Origin: Patescibacteria group bacterium
GTDB lineage: Bacteria > Patescibacteriota > Patescibacteriia > JAXHNJ01
Direction: 5' to 3'
Assembly: GCA_041649715.1 (NCBI GenBank)
Contig: JBAZMP010000002.1
Location: forward strand, 132,964 to 196,963
DNA: 64,000 nt
Shown here: one piece after another, positions 29,147-58,148 of the stretch
Numbering within the stretch: the first letter of the stretch is position 1
Layout of the letters: every line of letters begins with the position of its first letter
The notes under the pieces: generated by a model
What the model saw: only the letters and a program-made list of their open reading frames with translations
Database searches by the model: none
What the model was told of the DNA's origin: nothing
Program-made: the position numbers and the translations under genes

Positions 29147-29231
29147 TGGTGCCCTGGGGGAGATTTGAACTCCCATCCCGTGAGGGACACGCTCCTGAAG
29201 CGTGCGCGTATGCCAGTTCCGCCACCAGGGC
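29147..29231 (-). tRNA. tRNA-Leu(CAG), CCA encoded
   Basis: Hand fold. Acceptor GCCCTGG/CCAGGGC. D arm GCGG-aactggcata-CGCG. Anticodon arm CACGC-ttCAGga-GCGTG. Long variable arm. T arm GGGAG-ttcaaat-CTCCC. Ends A-CCA. Confidence 0.93.
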
Positions 29232-45899: not shown

Positions 45900-46247
45900 T
45901 TGAGGGGACGCGGTTCGTTCAATCCCAAGAACGCCAAGCTGGACGGTAAGGGTCTGCCCATGCCGACCAAAGTGTCTTCCACCGAAGAATTTCTCGCCCT
46001 GATGGGTATCCGCACGAAAGGACCGGCCCACCGGCTGGTCGAACACGTCAAAGATCCGTGTGAAATCGATGAGGCCTATTGCCAGGAAGGAAAAAAGCTT
46101 TTTAGCACGACCGTGAATTTGTTTCATGAAGCCTGCGGTTGTCCGAAAAAAGCCGCCGAAGCGGCCCGCCGGCTGGTCCGCGTGGCCACCAACGATATGC
46201 CCGTAAGACGCGGCGTCTGGAGCAATATCGTCGGCCGGCCCGGCTGA
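45900..46247 (+). CDS. hypothetical GC-rich protein
   Basis: TTG start 6 nt after 'AAGGAGG'. Followed by terminator CCCCGTT(T)CC...GGAACGGGG-TTTT (46277-46310). The antisense ORF 45885..46259 has neither signal. Confidence 0.5.
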   Translation: MRGRGSFNPKNAKLDGKGLPMPTKVSSTEEFLALMGIRTKGPAHRLVEHVKDPCEIDEAYCQEGKKLFSTTVNLFHEACGCPKKAAEAARRLVRVATNDMPVRRGVWSNIVGRPG

Positions 46248-46276
46248 CAAGAATTTCAAAATTAGATCTTCGGTAA

Positions 46277-46310
46277 ACCCCGTTTCCAGTGGGAACGGGG
46301 TTTTCTTTTA
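46277..46310 (+). terminator. intrinsic terminator
   Basis: AAACCCCGTTTCC-agtg-GGAACGGGGTTTTC. Confidence 0.7.
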
Positions 46311-46359
46311 GCCAAAAATATGTTATGGTATAATGCACTTGCAGAATGGAAAAATGAAG

Positions 46360-46480
46360 GTGGGCAGAGCGGAGGGTTCGCATATCACCGCAAAGCGGGA
46401 CCCCCCCGCAATGCGGGGTGGGTGGTCTAGTGCGCTTGCTTGTCCCGCAAAGCGGGATGCCGCTCTGCGGCAGAGAGCCG
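46360..46480 (+). other. GC-rich structured segment built from tRNA-Ser 5'-half fragments plus small hairpins
   Basis: 'ggagggttcgcat' (11/13 match to tRNA positions 1-13) and an exact 21-mer 'gtggtctagtgcgcttgcttg' (46422-46442 = 46572-46592). These are separated by hairpins CCGCaaaGCGG, CCCCGCaatGCGGGG and TCCCGCaaaGCGGGA, all closed by GCAGAGCGG/CCGCTCTGC. Confidence 0.6.
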
Positions 46481-46557
46481 GAAAATAAGCATATGTATTC
46501 TGTCTGCATATAAAAGTTATAAAGGCGGTTTGCAATTTAATAAGTAGCGGAAAGAAC

Positions 46558-46644
46558 GGAGAGGTCGCATAGTGGTCTAGTGCGCTTGCTTGGAGAGCAA
46601 GTAGACCTTCACCGGTCTCGCGAGTTCAAATCTCGCCCTCTCCG
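46558..46644 (+). tRNA. tRNA-Ser(GGA), no encoded CCA
   Basis: Acceptor GGAGAGG/CCTCTCC. Anticodon arm CTTGC-ttGGAga-GCAAG. Long variable arm. T arm GCGAG-ttcaaat-CTCGC. Discriminator G. Confidence 0.92.
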
Positions 46645-46761
46645 TTCTTCCCGCTACAATCTTGCCCTCTCCGCCAATTATTTTAAATAAAAAAATCGCA
46701 AAAGTCTTGCATTTTTCTGGCGGGTGTTTGTTAAGATAAATTAAGTCGCAATTTGATTGGT

Positions 46762-47910
46762 ATGAATTTCTATGACCTTAGGAATAAAATAGGCCGCTAT
46801 AAAAAATTTTCCCTTGTTACGACACTAGAAAAAAGCTCTGTAGTAAACGAAGCCTATCCGGGCCAATTTAATCTTAGCTTCACTGAATCAAAATGGCTGG
46901 ATAAATTTGACAATTATATAGATGTAAATGAAGATTTTTTCTTTAGTACCATACAGCCCGTTATTAGATACAACGACTTCAAAAATCAAATCTTAACAAA
47001 TAAGACTGCGCACAAACATCTAGCGTTATTTGATATGGCAGATTTGGTCGGAGCAGGAGTTTTTGTTGATAAGAATTCGGGCAATAACTTTACAATACTT
47101 GAGATTCAAGAATTTATTAAATTATTTTTGGAGCTAAAAATTTCTCTCGACAGAGTATATGTTAGTAGCTTTGCCGGCGCGAAAGTAAATGAGGCTACAA
47201 GAGGGAAATATAAATTTGAAAAATTTATACCACCATTTGAATTCGGAAGAAATCAGTGGGTGAAAAACGGGATACCTTCAAAAAATATTATTCCCGATAA
47301 GTCTCGTGACACATTTCTAGCTCTTAATCTTTATGGAAGACCAACGCCCTGGGGTTATCGCAACGAAATTTATATTAAATCTTCCGCCGGCGAATTAATT
47401 GATATCGCTACGTTAGAACATTTAATTTGGTGCCCCGTTTTTAAAGACGGCGAGATTATTGATTTAGTTGACTATGAACATTTCGTAGGTTTGAATGTTA
47501 TTGGAGTCGAAAGGTTATGCATGATCATTAATGATTTCACTAATATTTCTCAATGTGAACATATTTATCCTCTAATCTTAGCGATTAAAAAAGTTTCATT
47601 AAATTACAATTACCATTCGGCTTTTACCGTTGTCGAGAGTGTGCGGGCGGTACATAGGATTATTGCGGATATCGACAAACCAAGCAATCTGTCAAAAACG
47701 CGTCATACAAAATTTAATGATTATTTAGAGGCTTTATACATTCATTTGAATATGCTTAAAATATCAGATAAGATGGGTGTGTTAGAGAAAATATTTGAAT
47801 TAAATGCGAAAATCAATCCGCATTATCCGGAATTACAAAGTGCGGCTAACAATGCTAAAAAAACAGTAGAAGCATATTTTGAGGTAAGATTTAAAAATAG
47901 GGATTGTTAA
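46762..47910 (+). CDS. free-standing AlaRS catalytic-core-like (class IIc) paralog, divergent
   Basis: Colinear remote matches to E. coli AlaRS, recalled from memory. 'STIQPVIRYNDF...KTAHKHLALFDMADLVG' vs 'TSQRCVR...TARHHTFFEMLGNFS'. 'IGVERLCMIINDFTNISQCEHIYPLI' vs '[27 protein letters not shown]'. 'VVESVRAVHRIIADIDKPSN' vs '[22 protein letters not shown]'. AT-rich. Confidence 0.55.
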   Translation: MNFYDLRNKIGRYKKFSLVTTLEKSSVVNEAYPGQFNLSFTESKWLDKFDNYIDVNEDFFFSTIQPVIRYNDFKNQILTNKTAHKHLALFDMADLVGAGVFVDKNSGNNFTILEIQEFIKLFLELKISLDRVYVSSFAGAKVNEATRGKYKFEKFIPPFEFGRNQWVKNGIPSKNIIPDKSRDTFLALNLYGRPTPWGYRNEIYIKSSAGELIDIATLEHLIWCPVFKDGEIIDLVDYEHFVGLNVIGVERLCMIINDFTNISQCEHIYPLILAIKKVSLNYNYHSAFTVVESVRAVHRIIADIDKPSNLSKTRHTKFNDYLEALYIHLNMLKISDKMGVLEKIFELNAKINPHYPELQSAANNAKKTVEAYFEVRFKNRDC

Positions 47911-47942
47911 AGAAAAACTTAAAATAATACTAATAATATTCC

Positions 47943-49106
47943 ATGAGACAAGAATTTGAAACAGATTTAAGAGATTTCGGCCAGGTGGCCAAAGAAGAGT
48001 TAAATACGGAAGAAAAACTTTCAGGGGGCAACTTCGAGAGTTTGTCTGCCGTTTCACGCCAGGATGAAGCGGCCAAAAGGCAGCATACCTCCCGCGAAAC
48101 GCAGCGTGAGATTTATGATATCCAAAAAGAAAAGCAAAAGATAATGCAGGCCTTAAAGGAACAACTGGCATGTCTGGACAACCCTGAGGGCAGACTGGAG
48201 CGGGAAAGAGGCGAACGGACGGTTTCTTTTGACGAAGCAGAGGGTGTTTTCGTTTATCAAGATGACCGGGGCCGCCGGCAAAAAGCGACTTTCGGGGAAA
48301 TCATGACCGACATGGATTGGAATGTTCTTTACCACCTGGATAAAGATTCAGCGCCGCGGCCCATGGTAAAGAAATACCTGGTGGAAAGAGCCAAGGCAAA
48401 ATTGTCGGCTCTGCTGGATCTGCAGATCATCAAAAGCGAGTCCGGAAGCAGTGTGGTCCACGAAAAAAAACAACAGGCTTACCGCCGCATTGAAATGGAC
48501 AGACAAAGCGGGGCGGTCAAGGAAAGCTGGGGCTTGGTTTCCGAGTTGATCGTCAAGGACTTTTTAAAAAAATTGAGCCTGGACAAGGATTTCCCTTTCA
48601 AGATCAAGGAAGCGGATGTTTTTCAGGACGTGGAGGAAAAAATCGATTTCATCATCCACCTAGAGAAGAAAAAACGGGGCGTTAACGTGGAGACCGACGA
48701 AAAAGCCAAGGATATCGGCATCCAGTTCACCGTTTCCCCGGAGGTGGCGCCGCACAAGGAGCAACAGCTGCAAAAAGCCAGGCAGGATGTCAAAAAGCAA
48801 GGAGAACGCATTGACGATATCGTCTTGGTCGTCTTTCCCCTGAAAATGGCCAGCGCCTTGCAGCGGCAATGGCGGCACGAGGGCCGCCCGGCCGGCGGGC
48901 CGGATAAATTTTTGTACCGGCAGGAGGCAGAAAAGCTCTTCAAGGAATTGCTGCAGGGCGTGCTTAAACCCGAGGAAATTGCCCAATATTGGGCGACTGT
49001 CCAGAACAATTGGGAAGAAGACCCGCAAATTATCGAGGAAAGAAAAACGCAGCGGGCCAGACACCAAATGAGTCAGCAAGCCTTAAAAAATAAAAATCAG
49101 CAGTGA
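47943..49106 (+). CDS. hypothetical charged protein (possible D..EEK nuclease-like motif)
   Basis: Long uninterrupted ORF. 'EADVFQDVEEKIDFIIHL...GIQFTVS'. No confident family. Confidence 0.55.
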   Translation: MRQEFETDLRDFGQVAKEELNTEEKLSGGNFESLSAVSRQDEAAKRQHTSRETQREIYDIQKEKQKIMQALKEQLACLDNPEGRLERERGERTVSFDEAEGVFVYQDDRGRRQKATFGEIMTDMDWNVLYHLDKDSAPRPMVKKYLVERAKAKLSALLDLQIIKSESGSSVVHEKKQQAYRRIEMDRQSGAVKESWGLVSELIVKDFLKKLSLDKDFPFKIKEADVFQDVEEKIDFIIHLEKKKRGVNVETDEKAKDIGIQFTVSPEVAPHKEQQLQKARQDVKKQGERIDDIVLVVFPLKMASALQRQWRHEGRPAGGPDKFLYRQEAEKLFKELLQGVLKPEEIAQYWATVQNNWEEDPQIIEERKTQRARHQMSQQALKNKNQQ

Positions 49107-49139
49107 TTAGAGTGTTTAGAGAATTGAGGTATTGAAAAT

Positions 49140-49496
49140 ATGAAAACCACCCTTAAAATTTTATACGGCCTGCTTTTTCTTTTAACCGCTTTCTGGCTGG
49201 CGGCGGGTTTTTACATGTTATTTAAAGAGGTAAAGGCGGAAATTTTCTGGCCGGCAAAAATCATCGCGATTCTCATGATCGGCAATGCTTTTATTTTCTT
49301 GGTTTTGGCCTGGGGAGTTTGGAAAAAGAAAAAATGGCTTTTCTATCCCGGTCTGATCTATCTGGCGATAAACGTCATTTTAAGCATAGCTGACCAGCTG
49401 GGATTCTGGGATTTTGTCGGCCTTGGTATCAGCCTGATAACTTTAATTTTTTTCTACAAAGCAAAAGCGGTTTTCAAAGAAACAAAGCCGGCCTGA
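49140..49496 (+). CDS. hypothetical 4-TM membrane protein
   Basis: Four hydrophobic helices. ATG preceded by 'GAGGTATTGAAAAT'. Confidence 0.6.
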   Translation: MKTTLKILYGLLFLLTAFWLAAGFYMLFKEVKAEIFWPAKIIAILMIGNAFIFLVLAWGVWKKKKWLFYPGLIYLAINVILSIADQLGFWDFVGLGISLITLIFFYKAKAVFKETKPA

Positions 49497-49599
49497 CTTG
49501 GACAAAACAGGAGAAATATGTCGCAATATGAGCCGAGCGTGGCTTTTTTTGCAAATATTGCTATAATATTAGGGCCTATTTGTCTGATAATATATTAAG

Positions 49600-49899
49600 A
49601 TGCCTAGCCCAGAAGAAAATAAATTTCAAGAAACAGAAGAGGATAATTTGGAATTAAAGCAATACAGGGAGTTTGATTTGGAATCTTTGCGACAAATGCA
49701 GGGTCGTTTAATGGTCAAGATAGAAGAAACAAGAGCACTTATAGCGGACAAGCAGCAGGAGATTAAGATAAAAGAAGAGCAAAAAGATGATGATGGTGTT
49801 TATGTCTGCGGATTGGAGTTAAGGCAAAAAGAGACGGTTCTCGGGGGCCTTGAGGAGAATTTAAAAATGTTGAATATGGCAATAGAAGAAAAAATATAA
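49600..49899 (+). CDS. hypothetical coiled-coil protein
   Basis: Heptad-like charged sequence. No family assigned. Confidence 0.45.
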   Translation: MPSPEENKFQETEEDNLELKQYREFDLESLRQMQGRLMVKIEETRALIADKQQEIKIKEEQKDDDGVYVCGLELRQKETVLGGLEENLKMLNMAIEEKI

Positions 49900-49917
49900 A
49901 TCATAACTAATAAAACT

Positions 49918-50250
49918 ATGCCCAGAGAACACGAAGGGGAAAATCCCGAAGAATCGTTTAGCGAAACAGACAGAGAAAATGAAAAAGAAATATCAGTCAC
50001 ATTATCTCGGGAATCGACATTTGCCGACCTGTACAGATTGATGGAAAATCATGAAAATAGTGAAGAATTGAAGGATTTGTTTGATCAGGAATTAATCGAT
50101 AATTTCGGCCAAGAAATAGTTGATGAAGTTATGGCTTTTGAAGAATCTGCTAACCCTGAAGCGGCCAAAACAAAAGTAATTGATTTCTTCGTGGAGCGCG
50201 GTTATGAAAAAGGGGATATTATTGCTTATTTGCCCGTTGAATTTAAGTAA
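49918..50250 (+). CDS. hypothetical acidic protein
   Basis: Highly acidic 110-aa ORF. No family assigned. Confidence 0.45.
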   Translation: MPREHEGENPEESFSETDRENEKEISVTLSRESTFADLYRLMENHENSEELKDLFDQELIDNFGQEIVDEVMAFEESANPEAAKTKVIDFFVERGYEKGDIIAYLPVEFK

Positions 50251-50257
50251 TACAAAA

Positions 50258-50345
50258 CGTCACCTCGAGGTATCCTTCGACGCGGCTCAGGGCTCAGCCT
50301 GACAATATGGACTAAGCCTTTTTTTGCCCGGGGTTTGGGGGGGAA
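50258..50345. repeat. degenerate member of the GTCACC..GAGG / CTCAG..TGACA palindromic repeat family
   Basis: 'cgtcacctcgaggtatccttcgacg..ctcagggctcagcctgacaat..actaagcc..gcccggggtttggggggg'. Confidence 0.6.
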
Positions 50346-50354
50346 CAAAAAGCT

Positions 50355-50819
50355 ATGCGCGACCCGAAGCTTGAAACATCAGGAAAAATAATCGGCTTTT
50401 ATGAAAGGGAGTTTTATTGTTTTTCCAATTTTTCAAGTTTTAAAGTGGAGTGGCAGGGTAAAATCTGGATGACCTCGGAACATGCCTATCAGGCGGCCAG
50501 ATTCTTGAAAACCGCGCCGGCCATCGCGGAAGAGATTTATAAGGCCAGGTCCGCCCACGAAGCGAAAAAGATCATGGAAAGAAACCGGGCCAAAGAGGAG
50601 CCGAACTGGGAGACCAAGAAGGTTGGCGTGATGGAAGAAATATGCTCTAATAAACTCAAGCAGAACCCTTATATCCAAAAGAAGCTGCGGGAAACCGGAA
50701 CAAAAGATATTGTGGAGGATTCGCCGGTGGATGGTTTCTGGGGCTGGGGTCCTGATCGCAAAGGCAGAAATGAACTTGGGAAGATTTGGATGAGATTAAG
50801 AGAGAAACTGTCACCCTGA
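50355..50819 (+). CDS. NADAR (YbiA/DUF1768) family protein
   Basis: 'FYEREFYCFSNFS...WMTSEHAYQAARF', 'DGFWGWG'. The last four codons and the stop lie in the repeat core. Confidence 0.8.
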   Translation: MRDPKLETSGKIIGFYEREFYCFSNFSSFKVEWQGKIWMTSEHAYQAARFLKTAPAIAEEIYKARSAHEAKKIMERNRAKEEPNWETKKVGVMEEICSNKLKQNPYIQKKLRETGTKDIVEDSPVDGFWGWGPDRKGRNELGKIWMRLREKLSP

Positions 50820-50942
50820 GGTGCGGAGCCTCGAAGGGTGACGCCTGAAAAAAGGCACATTGTCTATGCTTCGAGACGCCCGCCGGGCTCCTCAGCATGA
50901 CAATGTGGGCTAGCCTTTTGAGCCCGTGGTTTGGGGGGCGAC
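50808..50942. repeat. palindromic repeat element with 34-nt core TGTCACCCTGAGGTGCGGAGCCTCGAAGGGTGAC (core 50809-50842)
   Basis: Core identical at 50809, 51905 and 52560. The second half ends '...ctcctcagcatgacaat'. Confidence 0.85.
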
Positions 50943-51027
50943 GGAGATATCAAGATATTGTCCGCCCAAGGCGGATCCGCCTCTGGCGGAAGATGTCGAG
51001 AACTAGTTAAGTAAAAGGCTTACATTT

Positions 51028-51243
51028 ATGATAAAAAAGAATACCAAAGCCATTTTTCTTGACGGTGATTACAAAGGCGAATATGACTGGCAAGGAGGCA
51101 TCCCTCTTTTTGAAGGAGAAATTATGTCCGTCAAAGTTAAAGGGAAAGTGCTTCCTTACAAGTTAATTAAGAAGGAAGTTTCTTGTGAAGCAGAAAGCGA
51201 TGATCAGGTAATTGAGGCTGTTTATACTTTCAAACTGACATAA
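51028..51243 (+). CDS. hypothetical small protein
   Basis: 71-aa ORF between repeat elements. No family assigned. Confidence 0.4.
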   Translation: MIKKNTKAIFLDGDYKGEYDWQGGIPLFEGEIMSVKVKGKVLPYKLIKKEVSCEAESDDQVIEAVYTFKLT

Positions 51244-51311
51244 AAAACTTCTCGGGGTTTGGGGGAGGAAAAATAATTAACTAATATATTAATATTAAGG
51301 AGGCAAAATAT

Positions 51312-51896
51312 ATGACAAAAACAATCGAAAATTTAACTAAAGCGTTTATTGGCGAATCTCAAGCAAGGAACAGGTATACCATCTATGCGGCGCAAGCGAA
51401 AAAAGAGGGCTATGAACAATTAGCGGGAATTTTTGAAGAGACCGCCAATCAGGAGTTTGAGCATGGTGAGTGGAATTTCAAAATGCTCAAAGAATTGCTG
51501 GCCAAAGAAGGTTTAGGCATGCCGGAGCTAAAAGTGGAAGCCGGGGCGCCGACCACCTGGGGCAGCCTGATTGAAAACCTGCAAGGTGCGATCAAAGGGG
51601 AAAACTGGGAGCACACGACCATGTATCCGGAATTCGCGGAACAGGCCAAGAAAGACGGTTATCCGGAAGTGGCCAAGCGCTTACTTTCCATTGCCAAAGC
51701 GGAAGAGCATCATGAAGAAAGATATTTAAAGTACGTGAAAGTGCTGGAAGACGGCACGGTTTTCAAGAAAGAGAAAAAAGTCTGGTGGTACTGCCGCAAG
51801 TGCGGATACATGCATTTTGGCGAAGAAGCGCCGACGACTTGTCCGTCCTGTGGTCATGCGCAAGGGTTTTATCAGATGAAGTGTGAAGAGTACTAA
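51312..51896 (+). CDS. rbr: rubrerythrin
   Basis: Ferritin-like diiron ligands ('EFEH', 'EEHH') plus a C-terminal rubredoxin-like 'CRKCGY...CPSCGH'. RBS 'AAGGAGG'. Confidence 0.93.
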   Translation: MTKTIENLTKAFIGESQARNRYTIYAAQAKKEGYEQLAGIFEETANQEFEHGEWNFKMLKELLAKEGLGMPELKVEAGAPTTWGSLIENLQGAIKGENWEHTTMYPEFAEQAKKDGYPEVAKRLLSIAKAEEHHEERYLKYVKVLEDGTVFKKEKKVWWYCRKCGYMHFGEEAPTTCPSCGHAQGFYQMKCEEY

Positions 51897-55722: not shown

Positions 55723-56910
55723 ATGTCCAGGCAGGCAAAAAAGAAGAATAAATCAAAAAAATCTTTTAATAAAAAAAAGGCCGCTAAACCAAGAAAGACG
55801 CCGAAAGAGAAGTATCTAAAGGCGGATTTTCCCCGGGAAAAAATCGAAGATTTGATCAATAAGGGCCGTTCGCGCGGTTTTATCACCGAGACGGAGGTTC
55901 TTTATGTTTTGCCGGATTTAGAGGATTATTTGTTGGAATACGAGCAATTGATGGATAAATTTGAAAATCTCGGCATTGTCATCGTGGAATCGCCGACCTC
56001 TATTTTAGCGACAAAAAAAGAAAAGGAAGAATACCAGGAAAAATTCGGGCACGGGAAGGACGCCCGCCGTTTTGACCTGGGCGACATTTCCGATGATTCC
56101 ATCCAGATGTATTTAAGGGAAATCGGCAAAGTCCATCTTTTAAAGACGGAAGAAGAGGTCAGTCTGGCCAAAAGGAAGGAAAAGGGGGACATGGAAGCGC
56201 AAAAAAAACTCGTGGAAGCGAATTTGCGTTTAGTGGTGTCCATCGCCAAAAAATTTACCGGCCGTTCATTGTCCCTGTTGGATTTGATTCAGGAGGGCAA
56301 TATCGGTTTATTCCGGGCCGTGGAAAAATTTGATTATCGCAAGGGCTATAAATTTTCCACTTATGCCACCTGGTGGATCAGGCAGGCGATCACCCGGGCG
56401 CTGGCCGATCAATCCCGCACCATCCGTATTCCCGTTCATATGGTGGAGACGATAAATCGTTTCCAGCAGGTGGAAAGACAATTGATTCAGGATCTGGGCC
56501 GCGAGCCCCTGCCGGAAGAGATTGCCGCCGAAATGGGCGAACCGGTGGAAAAAATCCGCCACATCATCAATATTTCCCAGGATACTGTCTCTTTGGAAAC
56601 CTCGGTGGGCGACGAAGAAGAAGATTCCACTTTGGGTGACTTTATCGAAGACGTAAAAACCATCACGCCGGACCGGGTGGCCGCTTTACAACTCCTGAAG
56701 GATCACGTAAAAGATATTATCAAGGAATTGACCCCCCGCGAGCAGAAGATATTGGAAATGCGTTTTGGATTGCTTGACGGCGTGGCCCATACCTTGGAGG
56801 AAGTAGGCAAGGAATTCGGGGTGACTCGCGAAAGGATCCGCCAGATCGAGGCCAAGGCTTTGGAGAGAATCCAGGAACATCACGGGATGAGAAAGCTGAA
56901 GGATTACTAA
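55723..56910 (+). CDS. rpoD: RNA polymerase sigma factor RpoD
   Basis: Region 2 '[39 protein letters not shown]'. Region 4 '[24 protein letters not shown]'. Confidence 0.96.
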
Positions 56911-56927
56911 TAATTAGTACCCAAAGC

Positions 56928-56999
56928 TCCGCGATAGCTCAATGGTAGAGCAACCGGCTGTTAACCGGTAGGTTGTCGGTCCGAATCCGACTCGCGGAG
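56928..56999 (+). tRNA. tRNA-Asn(GTT)-like gene with non-canonical T-loop (TCCGAAT)
   Basis: TCCGCGA ta GCTC aatggta GAGC a ACCGG ctGTTaa CCGGT aggtt GTCGG tccgaat CCGAC TCGCGGA g. Position 55 is C instead of the near-universal U. Flanked by TACCCAAAGC / GCTTTGGGTA. Confidence 0.7.
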
Positions 57000-57020
57000 C
57001 TTTGGGTATTTTATTTATTT

Positions 57021-57222
57021 ATGGTATCCCTGGTTGCCGCTGCAACCGGGACCCCGGCGCGAAGCGCCAGGGGGAGCAGCCGGCTGTTAACCGGTAGAGT
57101 CTGTCCTGAGTGGCAACGAAGGATTGTCGGTCCTGCGCCCGAGGCGCACCCGCCTTGGGCGGGGAATCCGACTCGCCCCGTACCAAAGCGCTTGCGCTTT
57201 GGTACGGGGCTCGCGGAGCTGG
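57021..57222 (+). pseudogene. second tRNA-Asn-like copy broken into four blocks by GC-rich hairpin insertions
   Basis: Blocks 57074-57097 (23/24 match to copy 1), 57124-57133, 57164-57176 and 57210-57220. They are separated by inserts of 26, 30 and 33 nt. The 5' part is replaced by hairpins. Confidence 0.55.
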
Positions 57223-57254
57223 CGAGATTATTTTTTTGTCGTCTAGCCAGAATT

Positions 57255-57290
57255 AAAAAGCCCCTTTTAGCAAAAGGGGCCTAGTTTTTG
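57255..57290. terminator. bidirectional terminator
   Basis: AAAAAGCCCCTTTT-agc-AAAAGGGGCCTAGTTTTT. Confidence 0.7.
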
Positions 57291-57295
57291 GGGGA

Positions 57296-57622
57296 TTATG
57301 CTCCCAATATCTGATGACGAGGCAAGAGCTTTTTCAGGAGAGCAGGCGTCGCATTTTCCAGCTGGAAAGCCTGGCGGAAAGGTTTCGCAATCTTGGGGTG
57401 AAAAAGGCTCAAGACTTCTTCCAGACTGCCTTCTCTTCGGGTTCCCCCGTGCTCGGGATCTTGAGCGATGGCCACGAAAGATTTTTCTTGCCGGGTGATG
57501 GAGATGGTAAGGCAAGGTTCCAGATTCCAGAGGGTATATTCCTCGATTTCGACCACTTGGCCGTTTATTACCTGGATGGTATCCGGTGGCAGTTTTGCCC
57601 TATCGGCTAATCCTGGTTCCAT
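57296..57622 (-). CDS. hypothetical protein
   Basis: Strong RBS 'GAGAGGAGGAAAT' before the ATG on the minus strand. The overlapping plus-strand ORFs lack one. Confidence 0.6.
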   Translation of the reverse strand: MEPGLADRAKLPPDTIQVINGQVVEIEEYTLWNLEPCLTISITRQEKSFVAIAQDPEHGGTRREGSLEEVLSLFHPKIAKPFRQAFQLENATPALLKKLLPRHQILGA

Positions 57623-57706
57623 ATTTCCTCCTCTCGAGTTTGGGCGGAAAGAACGAATTTATAAGGTATCTAGATGTTATTAAAATAAGATACATTTGTC
57701 AATATC

Positions 57707-57736
57707 TTGACAAATGCGGCTCATTTGCTCTAAGAT
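57707..57736 (+). promoter_or_regulatory. promoter TTGACA-N18-TAAGAT
   Basis: TTGACA 57707-57712, TAAGAT 57731-57736. Confidence 0.55.
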
Positions 57737-57746
57737 GTAATTACTT

Positions 57747-57803
57747 ATGAAACTTGCGAAGCAAAATCTGAATAACAATAATAACCGTCTTTTGGCCGGG
57801 TGA
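57747..57803 (+). CDS. candidate 18-codon leader ORF MKLAKQNLNNNNNRLLAG (six Asn codons)
   Basis: ATG about 4-10 nt after the predicted TSS, with no SD. Codons AAT CTG AAT AAC AAT AAT AAC. The 3' end GGCCGGG is complementary to the terminator 5' arm. Confidence 0.35.
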   Translation: MKLAKQNLNNNNNRLLAG

Positions 57804-57832
57804 GTTTCATTTAATTTGTAATTATGAGGAAA

Positions 57833-57857
57833 CCCGGCCAAATGAGCCGGTTTTTTT
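57833..57857 (+). terminator. intrinsic terminator (attenuator candidate)
   Basis: CCGGC-caaatga-GCCGG followed by TTTTTTT. CCCGGCC (57833-57839) can alternatively pair with GGCCGGG (57794-57800). Confidence 0.75.
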
Positions 57858-57867
57858 GTTTATAGCC

Positions 57868-58148
57868 GGGCGCCGCGCTCAGGGGTAGTTGAGCTGGTAC
57901 CCCGCATAACTCACTGTGTTCGTATGCGGGGCAGGCAACGCCGGTAATATATTTTAATGATTATTCCAGCTCTCCTGTAGTTTAATTGGTAAAACGCTGC
58001 ACTGTTAATGCAGAGATTGGAGGTTCGAGTCCTCCTGGGAGAGCTGGGATAATCATTGTAGCACTGCTTGTCCCGTAGGAACAGAAAGCGACTTACGGGA
58101 TTAATGCGGAGACCGCTGGTTCGAATCCAGCCCCCTGAGCGCGGCGCC
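57868..58148 (+). pseudogene. degenerate tRNA(Asn-like) gene interrupted by hairpins and by a complete nested tRNA-Asn cassette
   Basis: 18-bp closing helix GGGCGCCGCGCTCAGGGG / CCCCTGAGCGCGGCGCC. 5' block 'tcaggggtagttgagctggta'. 3' blocks 'gcactg' + 'ttaatgcggagacc GCTGG ttcgaat CCAGC cccctga g'. Hairpins at 57900-57931 and 58071-58100. Confidence 0.55.
57971..58043 (+). tRNA. tRNA-Asn(GTT), canonical
   Basis: TCTCCTG ta GTTT aattggta AAAC g CTGCA ctGTTaa TGCAG agatt GGAGG ttcgagt CCTCC TGGGAGA g. Closely resembles E. coli tRNA-Asn. Flanked by GATTATTCCAGC / GCTGGGATAATC. Confidence 0.93.

Follow-up and report, generated by a model that had tools for sequence, protein, structure and literature searches.

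A tRNA-Ser fragment interrupted by GC-rich hairpins in a Patescibacteria contig is a probable relic of a mobile GIY-YIG nuclease cassette

The stretch of DNA analysed here (hereafter the window) is 64 kb of a 255-kb metagenomic contig from a bacterium of the Patescibacteria, or Candidate Phyla Radiation (CPR), and the segment under study lies in it between a promoter and the transfer RNA (tRNA) gene tRNA-Ser(GGA). We consider it likely that this region is the promoter-proximal relic of a mobile cassette that encodes a nuclease of the GIY-YIG family and invades tRNA genes in Patescibacteria. Directly observed were the anatomy of the segment, the homology that links it to intact cassettes, the patchy occurrence of such cassettes at this locus among relatives and the tie of the nuclease family to tRNA genes. 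Coordinates are window positions, and relatives numbered between L019 and L128 are the loci used for comparison.

The gene order GroES-GroEL-...-PpsA-tRNA-Ser(GGA) is kept in relatives of this bacterium, and in the closest of them, L082 (PpsA 84% identical) and L083/L085 (77%), complete units lie between the promoter and tRNA-Ser. Each unit consists, in order, of a tRNA-Ser 5' half running to ...GCTTGG, a 35-nucleotide (nt) double hairpin (CCACCGCCnnnGGCGGGGTCCCGCCnnnGGCGGGA / CCACCGCCTACGGCGGGGTCCCGCCAGAGGCGGGA) inserted between anticodon bases 35 and 36, the remainder of the anticodon arm (AAAGCAAGTA) and an open reading frame (ORF) of 80 amino acids starting MYIVYIIQS. An uninterrupted tRNA-Ser with CCA then follows, and L083 carries two such units in tandem. 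The encoded protein is a single GIY-YIG catalytic domain (Pfam E 6e-18), the nearest solved relatives of which are the single-domain UPF0213 proteins 1zg2 and 1ywl. At the place where L082 and L083 have this ORF intact, the window has stubs only. At the locus after PpsA, L082 and L083 have the intact cassette and the window has a relic of it; L026, L028, L056 and L113 lack it and have a plain tRNA-Ser with CCA and no fragments; L019, L087, L089 and L090 have tRNA fragments and no nuclease gene. L089 has the allele found intact in L087 in pieces, a 5' one with a D-loop hairpin and others from the 3' part, placed around a new tRNA-Ser. Such plain, fragment-only and intact states among relatives form the gain-decay-loss pattern expected of a homing element.

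The nuclease family is found at tRNA genes in other neighbourhoods as well. Three more members, identified by exact-protein look-up (L115-122, L123-126 and L127/128), are each located at tRNA-Ser(GGA), again with this double hairpin between 35 and 36, and the six closest relatives in Joint Genome Institute (JGI) metagenomes sit in tRNA-Ser(CGA), tRNA-Tyr, tRNA-Asp (two), tRNA-Pro and a 16S ribosomal RNA (rRNA) gene. In each of the five JGI tRNA cases, an intact tRNA is accompanied by partial copies in which GC hairpins of the same sequence family (YCCCGC-loop-GCGGGR or CCGCC-loop-GGCGG) break up the D-loop or the anticodon loop or stand in for the anticodon arm. The architecture of the displaced part was identical in L092, L094 and L095, and the second unit of L092 has its ORF cut to a C-terminal stub, like the window. 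In L082, L117 and L127, direct repeats of 46-90 nt that hold the double hairpin flank the module of nuclease gene and intact tRNA. Arrays of 3' fragments with GC hairpins were also observed 3' of intact tRNAs (L082 8140-8440, L087 7640-7735, L089 6750-6890 and L094 1830-2020); a further palindrome is nested in a 3'-fragment hairpin at L082 8282-8315, and L094 has tandem repeats of such fragments.

The corresponding parts of the window are as follows.

46275-46303, plus strand: intrinsic terminator of the upstream 124-amino-acid ORF, followed by the T-run TTTTCTTTT (terminator scan; T-run kept in relatives)
46326-46334, plus strand: predicted promoter of the extended -10 type, TGGTATAAT, native to the tRNA-Ser locus (position conserved among relatives)
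46364-46372 and 46460-46468: 9-bp complementarity, GCAGAGCGG with CCGCTCTGC (100% match)
46366-46384, plus strand: leader AGAGC and tRNA-Ser positions 1-14 (GGAGGGTTCGCATA, 46371-46384) of a displaced allele (16/19 match to 46553-46571)
46385-46421, plus strand: 37-nt D-loop insert at position 14/15, with the two GC hairpins CCGC-AAA-GCGG and CCCCGC-AAT-GCGGGG
46422-46442, plus strand: tRNA-Ser positions 15-35, comprising D-loop, 3' strand of the D-stem, 5' strand of the anticodon stem and loop to G34/35 (exact 21-mer)
46443-46472, plus strand: 30-nt double hairpin in the anticodon loop, two tandem 15-nt hairpins, TCCCGC-AAA-GCGGGA (46443-46457) and TGCCGC-TCT-GCGGCA (46458-46472)
46473-46478, plus strand: GAGAGC, tRNA-Ser positions 36-41, which complete the anticodon loop and begin the 3' strand of the stem (6/6 against the neighbouring tRNA)
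46479-46544, plus strand: spacer and stubs of a deleted GIY-YIG ORF, the stubs at 46493-46544 (tblastn, DNA alignment and translation)
46544-46657, plus strand: functional tRNA-Ser(GGA) at 46558-46644, without encoded CCA, within a leader/trailer inverted repeat (ARAGORN; Rfam 56.9 bits)
46658-46676, plus strand: displaced copy of the tRNA-Ser 3' end with CCA (AATCTTGCCCTCTCCGCCA; 15/16 against 46629-46644)

The first tRNA piece, GGAGGGTTCGCATA, matches positions 1-14 of the neighbouring tRNA-Ser at 12/14 bases without the five leader bases, and the 21-mer is identical to 46572-46592 (blastn-short, E 1.4e-6). When the inserts were removed, 46371-46384, 46422-46442 and 46473-46478 joined into a 41-mer that matched positions 1-41 of the intact tRNA-Ser(GGA) of L090 at 41/41 bases and the window's own tRNA-Ser at 39/41. 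Given the perfect match to L090, the two mismatches represent an allelic difference in the acceptor stem and not decay. Judged from these alignments, the relic derives cleanly from the 5' portion of another tRNA-Ser allele, with one interruption at D-loop position 14/15 and one in the anticodon loop. It holds tRNA positions 1-41 only, not a four-arm cloverleaf, and no tRNA gene was detected in 46360-46480, either with Rfam RF00005 even at E<=10 or with ARAGORN, which called only 46557-46645.

All of the features listed in a first-pass annotation of this DNA were found where it had placed them, among them the extended -10, the 9-bp closing complementarity and the match to the start of tRNA-Ser with two hairpins after it. 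The exact 21-nt copy that it reported is likewise there, although not confined to the D-arm and anticodon stem that it described, since the copy spans the D-loop to anticodon base G34/35, and its further hairpin in the anticodon loop is in fact a tandem pair. Its statement that homology stops after this hairpin is contradicted by GAGAGC, which continues the tRNA sequence. The first-pass description of a 'decayed, hairpin-invaded partial duplicate' was essentially right about the displaced 5' portion but missed its probable cause, the GIY-YIG cassette that is present as stubs here and intact in relatives, and 'decayed' hardly suits tRNA pieces that agree with the L090 allele at every base. A candidate third, degenerate copy of the 21-mer at 46325-46345 (67% identical) was rejected as a chance resemblance because this stretch is the promoter, which is conserved in relatives without fragments.

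Beyond the tRNA pieces, ATGTATTCTGTCTGCATATAA encodes MYSVCI* in place of the MYIVYI of the intact protein, and 46512-46544 encodes KSYKGGLQFNK* in place of KKYKGGEAFKK (tblastn, 7/11). At the DNA level, GAAAATAAGCATATGTAT of the window matches GAAAATATAAATATGTAT of L082 at 15/18 bases, with 9/500 shuffles scoring as well, and TAAAAGTTATAAAGGCGG matches TAAAAAATATAAAGGCGG of L082 at 16/18, with 2/500 shuffles scoring as well. The order and place of the stubs are collinear with the intact cassettes. These alignments, taken alone, are moderate evidence that a nuclease gene has been deleted from the window except for its two ends, ~6 codons at the start and ~11 at the stop.

The working tRNA-Ser differs in its acceptor stem from the displaced 5' part, and its leader/trailer inverted repeat (92% complementary) lengthens the acceptor stem to 24 nt. 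Leader/trailer repeats lengthen the stem in three of the four window tRNAs (Ser 24, Asn1 17 and Asn2 20 nt), and all three of these extended-stem tRNAs (Ser, 46544-46657; Asn1, 56918-57008; Asn2, 57956-58057) are without encoded CCA; tRNA-Leu (29147-29231) has an encoded CCA and no such repeat. In relatives, the tRNA-Ser extension is a perfect 11 nt in L090 and 6 nt in L082. These extensions could be a processing signal or a signature of 'imported' tRNA copies. The 3'-end copy at 46658-46676 starts 13 nt after the working tRNA-Ser, is unique in the window, where it is the only further tRNA-Ser 3' portion (19 nt), and has similar counterparts in L082, L087 and L089. It may be a displaced 3' end from an earlier round or the remnant of an attachment (att) site.

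We propose that the cassette in its intact layout comprises the native extended -10, a displaced tRNA-Ser 5' portion (the leader and positions 1 to ~41-46, with double hairpins at D-loop 14/15 and/or anticodon 35/36), the 80-amino-acid GIY-YIG gene and an uninterrupted tRNA-Ser that would supply the function. It would spread in the manner of a homing-endonuclease 'mobile ORF'. A naive tRNA gene would be cut by the nuclease, repair of the break would copy in the nuclease gene with a replacement tRNA part, and the old part would stay behind as a dead fragment. The window would then represent the degeneration stage of this cycle. Two features of homing cassettes were found. The element is sporadically present at one locus and recurs at tRNA-Ser in other contexts (L115, L123 and L127), and, as read from the alignments, part of the host gene is duplicated such that function would be restored while the native part is displaced.

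Several points weigh against this proposal. The nuclease activity, the target site and the mobility of the protein family are predicted, and the 80-residue protein has no recognisable DNA-binding domain. At each cassette, the interrupted copy and the uninterrupted tRNA next to it are identical in sequence around 35/36. The stubs in the window are short and significant against L082 only; against L083, 60/500 and 161/500 shuffles did as well. Transcription of the relic is likewise predicted, from a conserved promoter and the absence of a terminator. Furthermore, the comparison loci are all metagenome assemblies, in which L083 has an N-gap and many contigs end within repeats.

A second relic of the same kind was found at 57020-57226, directly 3' of tRNA-Asn (56928-57000). 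Its tRNA pieces are collinear (57074-57097, 23/24; 57124-57133; 57164-57176; 57210-57220) and interleaved with GC hairpins, including a D-loop doublet and a clean 30-nt T-loop doublet (TGCGCC-CGA-GGCGCA / CCCGCC-TTG-GGCGGG). It also contains a 34-nt perfect palindrome (57176-57209) flanked by duplicated CTCG, the only palindrome at which a duplication was seen. No remnant of a nuclease ORF was detected in 57020-57226.

The GC-rich hairpins are too frequent in the window to be a product of chance. The motif CCGCAAWGCGG occurs four times against 0.07 expected, three times in the tRNA-Ser segment and once in the uvrA coding sequence; among the perfect GC-rich hairpins listed, nine entries (each overlapping alternative being one entry) lie within the two zones of tRNA fragments, which make up ~0.4% of the window; and perfect hairpin doublets number three in the 64-kb window against one found in ~900 kb of PpsA loci of other organisms. 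Overall, there are ~6 doublets in the 64 kb, with stems that are related but not identical. Across copies the stems are near-invariant and the loops are free to vary (TAC, GTT, TCT, TCC; AGA, CGA, AAA, GCA), and the stems of the 30-nt double hairpin were seen again in L115 and L092. A related double hairpin at D-loop 14/15, the same site as the 37-nt insert, is also present in L019 and L091. The 30-nt insert of the window lies one base 5' of the 35-nt double hairpin in L082, L083, L115, L123 and L127, the exact junction being ambiguous owing to a GG at the insert site.

Doublets of this kind were also seen outside tRNA fragments. The FtsK gene (38-2053) holds an in-frame 30-nt doublet at 481-510 (TCCGCC-AAA-GGCGAA / TCCGCC-TCG-GGCGGA), within the part that encodes the linker from the membrane domain to the alpha domain; the ~10 extra residues occur only in the three closest homologues and are absent at 83-88% identity and beyond. 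A perfect 30-nt doublet at 50961-50990 (TCCGCC-CAA-GGCGGA / TCCGCC-TCT-GGCGGA) lies in the spacer after the NADAR-domain gene, preceded by a long imperfect hairpin (~50858-50908), and neither has an Rfam match. Hairpins at 57900-57931 and at L082 7603-7640 share a conserved 18-20-nt loop, ATAACTCACTGTGTTCGTAT, on different stems (CCCCGCAT/ATGCGGGG versus CCTGAACC/GGTTCGGG), and in both the window and L082 the hairpin comes after a tRNA-like 5' piece. In viral contigs the canonical double hairpin had no match, and the loop motif ATAACTCACTnnGTTCGT had 18 matches, about the number due to chance by rough expectation, only one of them within a hairpin.

What the hairpins do can be narrowed in one respect: a simple role in target-site immunity was rejected, as the intact twin tRNA has the same flanking sequence. 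The double hairpins accompany the nuclease gene among different tRNA targets, at fixed positions. They may be cut-site marks, recognition structures for a nuclease with no DNA-binding domain or interruptions of homology. As the exact tRNA pieces are all <=31 nt, an interruption of homology could protect the cassette from deletion between direct repeats. A bolder version, which we think unlikely, makes the double hairpins the working partner of the UPF0213-like GIY-YIG protein, which would recognise or create them as cruciforms at positions 14/15 and 35/36 of tRNA genes; hairpin, nuclease and spare tRNA part together would be a minimal, structure-guided mobile element aimed at tRNA genes. If true, it would give stand-alone GIY-YIG proteins a first function and would account for the direct repeats, hairpin included, on either side of the module in L082, L117 and L127.

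The promoter itself is native to the locus: TRTGRTATAMT occurs at a fixed distance 3' of the upstream terminator in 6/7 relatives, including L083, L087, L089, L090 and L113, and the promoter region of the window and that of L083 are nearly identical across 44 nt, as are the terminators. By its TGnTATAAT form and conserved position, the predicted promoter is of the sigma-70 extended -10 class. A simple sigma-70 consensus scan found no promoter at 46326 because no -35 is present. No terminator-like site was found by the terminator scan between the promoter and tRNA-Ser. With the only conserved promoter lying upstream of the relic and no terminator intervening, the relic is probably transcribed, and only as a long structured leader of the real tRNA-Ser. 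Such a 5' leader of the tRNA-Ser precursor, ~220 nt in length, would be removed in processing and would have no function of its own. Promoter-driven co-transcription with tRNA-Ser, as first suggested, is thus plausible, with a leader rather than an RNA product as its likely outcome.

We weighed the cassette relic against four other explanations. The earlier annotation had offered a tRNA-half-like non-coding RNA. As a functional structured RNA, this, or the 5' half of a split tRNA, would have its own promoter, be held together by the 9-bp helix and either work in trans or be joined to a 3' half encoded elsewhere. In keeping with this, the promoter is conserved, the tRNA pieces show no decay, the hairpin stems pair perfectly, and the predicted fold is modestly more stable than those of shuffled sequences (z -2.3 to -2.5), with a minimum-energy structure that contains the closing helix. 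However, when eight homologous units were folded only local hairpins were common to them, the closing helix not being present in L082, L083, L091, L092, L094 or L019, and the 3' arm of this helix falls inside the second 15-nt hairpin (46458-46472) and so is itself half of a family-type hairpin. Short-word BLAST with all four tRNAs found no tRNA-Ser 3' half or complementary flank in the 64 kb, and a complete tRNA-Ser(GGA) lies 80 nt downstream. The Rfam check advised in that annotation gave only the true tRNAs and tmRNA, both over the window at the gathering threshold and in permissive scans of 46200-46800, 50780-51320, 56880-58120 and six related loci, no Rfam family being matched by the segment at E<=10. 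Furthermore, the RNA is not conserved, since the relatives run through all states between a locus without fragments and a complete cassette. We therefore regard a functional RNA as very improbable. An ordinary tandem partial duplicate of tRNA-Ser, colonised later by palindromes resembling miniature inverted-repeat transposable elements and with no causal part for the GIY-YIG gene, would suit the same-family doublets outside tRNA fragments (in frame in the FtsK linker at 481-510 and in the spacer at 50961-50990) and the 4-nt duplication CTCG around one palindrome of the Asn relic. It fits poorly with doublets at the same two tRNA positions (14/15, and 35/36 +/- one base) in independent genomes and in different tRNA-Ser genes, with young units that always carry the nuclease ORF alongside the hairpins, with the ORF stubs kept in the window and with fragment edges that coincide with the ORF insertion point. 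We give this possibility little weight.

The two remaining explanations concern integration and splicing. Remnants of att sites, left by integrase-mediated insertion or excision of an island at tRNA-Ser, are suggested by the position of the 3'-end copy with CCA (46658-46676) against ~4.6 kb that is absent from L083 and by a recombinase-like gene, recognised by eye, just after tRNA-Ser in L113 and L115. Integrases, however, duplicate the 3' part of a tRNA gene and not an upstream 5' part, no second 3'-end copy is present at the far side of the 4.6-kb insert, and the hairpins, the ORF stubs and the homology to GIY-YIG cassettes are left unexplained. As an account of the whole segment this is highly improbable, while att remnants could be the source of the 3' fragment 46658-46676 alone. 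Lastly, the double hairpin might be a very small intron at 35/36, with interrupted copies that are or were functional. L127 has a full-length tRNA-Ser interrupted only by the 35-nt hairpin, which ARAGORN called as tRNA-Ser(GGA) after in silico removal of the insert, and 35/36 is the reported site of group I introns in Patescibacteria tRNA-Asn and tRNA-Asp (PMC13011429). Against this, 35 nt is too small for a group I core; the inserts are 30-37 nt, and Rfam found no intron family in the window, L092, L094, L115, L117, L123 or L127. No bulge-helix-bulge motif was evident by eye, each interrupted copy seen adjoins an uninterrupted tRNA of the same anticodon, most interrupted copies, including that of the window, are without a 3' half, and the L127 copy has acceptor and D-stem defects. 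An intron of this kind is hardly credible, and the cassette relic remains our preferred reading.

In the literature searched, the coverage of which was incomplete, we found no account of GIY-YIG cassettes that split tRNA genes and carry conserved double hairpins; this is absence of evidence only. The closest known system is in fungal mitochondria, where endonuclease mobile ORFs carry a replacement for part of a host gene and the native part is left unexpressed, as in the mobile ORF gene hybrids of Allomyces macrogynus atp6 and of Glomus atp6, atp9, cox2 and nad3 (PMC3630166). Both systems combine a free-standing endonuclease ORF (LAGLIDADG or GIY-YIG in fungi) with a part-gene replacement and an adjoining native remnant, and both are sporadic among close relatives. 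In the fungal system, however, it is the C-terminal part of protein genes that is replaced, whereas here the 5' or 3' part of bacterial tRNA genes is displaced, the nuclease has only 80 amino acids and GC-rich double hairpins interrupt the displaced copies. The Seg endonucleases in phage tRNA clusters are a looser match. Genes for Seg proteins, such as SegB in a tRNA gene cluster, are propagated when a double-strand break is repaired and flanking DNA is co-converted, and they can cause segments of tRNA regions to be amplified. They differ from the cassette here in carrying DNA-binding domains, in their size (~200 amino acids or more) and in being phage rather than cellular genes; the seg genes lie between genes and are not known to split a tRNA gene or to come with hairpin inserts. 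Free-standing GIY-YIG homing endonucleases of T4-like phages are treated in PMC2988022 and PMC13096335.

Within the CPR, GIY-YIG ORFs are known from non-intron insertion sequences of rRNA genes (PMC11270868). These come from the same phylum and the same protein family, and our comparison set includes one relative in a 16S rRNA gene (L096). They differ from the cassette here in that they are in rRNA and can be excised as intervening sequences, and no tRNA association, partial gene duplication or double hairpin is described for them (PMC11270868). In L096, the GIY-YIG relative (49% identical; 1430-1800) sits inside the 16S rRNA gene between the arms of a ~20-nt inverted repeat (CCCAGCTTCACTTTTGTTCT / AGAACAAAAGTGAGGCTGGG), which gives it the look of an intervening sequence that can be excised. 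In the tRNA-Asn and tRNA-Asp of Patescibacteria, group I introns at 35/36 (PMC13011429) occupy nearly the same unusual anticodon-loop position in the same phylum, and with them too standard tools miss or mis-call the gene. Here, unlike in these introns, the insert is 30-35 nt long and consists of two hairpins with no ribozyme core, and interrupted copies are mostly truncated and in every case accompanied by an intact twin; the words 'hairpin' and 'pseudogene' do not occur in the text of PMC13011429. In the split tRNA genes of Nanoarchaeum (PMC3491384), a tRNA 5' half is likewise followed by GC-rich sequence. In contrast, the host here is a bacterium, an intact gene lies alongside and the 64 kb contain no 3' half with a complementary leader. 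As to the hairpins themselves, mitochondrial double-hairpin elements, GC clusters, Rickettsia palindromic elements and the repetitive extragenic palindromic sequences and bacterial interspersed mosaic elements (REP/BIME) are short GC-rich palindromes or doublets. Such small palindromic elements insert in RNA genes, in spacers and, in frame, in protein genes, with pairing kept and loops varying. The hairpins here have no known sequence relationship to them, are 15-35 nt long and few per genome, and are distinguished by their concentration at fixed positions of tRNA fragments and their link to a GIY-YIG gene.

Two observations concern the far side of tRNA-Ser. Between this gene and a rubrerythrin gene lie ~4.6 kb (46700-51300) that L083 does not have, with two ORFs of ~385 amino acids, a DUF7027 protein, small ORFs and a NADAR protein. 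The two ~385-amino-acid ORFs had no Pfam or NCBIfam hit, and the GC content at 47-48 kb, in the region of these ORFs, is 0.34; this stretch may be an island inserted beside the tRNA. In L113 (6150-7200) and L115 (1315-2127, minus strand), the recombinase-like ORF just 3' of tRNA-Ser points towards it. If confirmed, this putative recombinase would suggest that tRNA-Ser is also a target of integrating elements.

The segment itself is a dead remnant of low functional interest, and its value is as the trace of a recurrent process in Patescibacteria. Cassettes of this type appear to split the tRNA genes for Ser, Tyr, Asp, Pro and probably Asn, bringing a replacement tRNA part with them, which would mean that the 'mobile ORF gene hybrid' mechanism known for protein genes of fungal mitochondria also operates on tRNA genes of bacteria. 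tRNA annotation is affected, as fragments and interrupted copies can mislead gene finders and contigs break at the arrays. The finding may bear on the function of stand-alone GIY-YIG proteins, and it bears on how selfish elements are tolerated by essential single-copy RNA genes in very small genomes.

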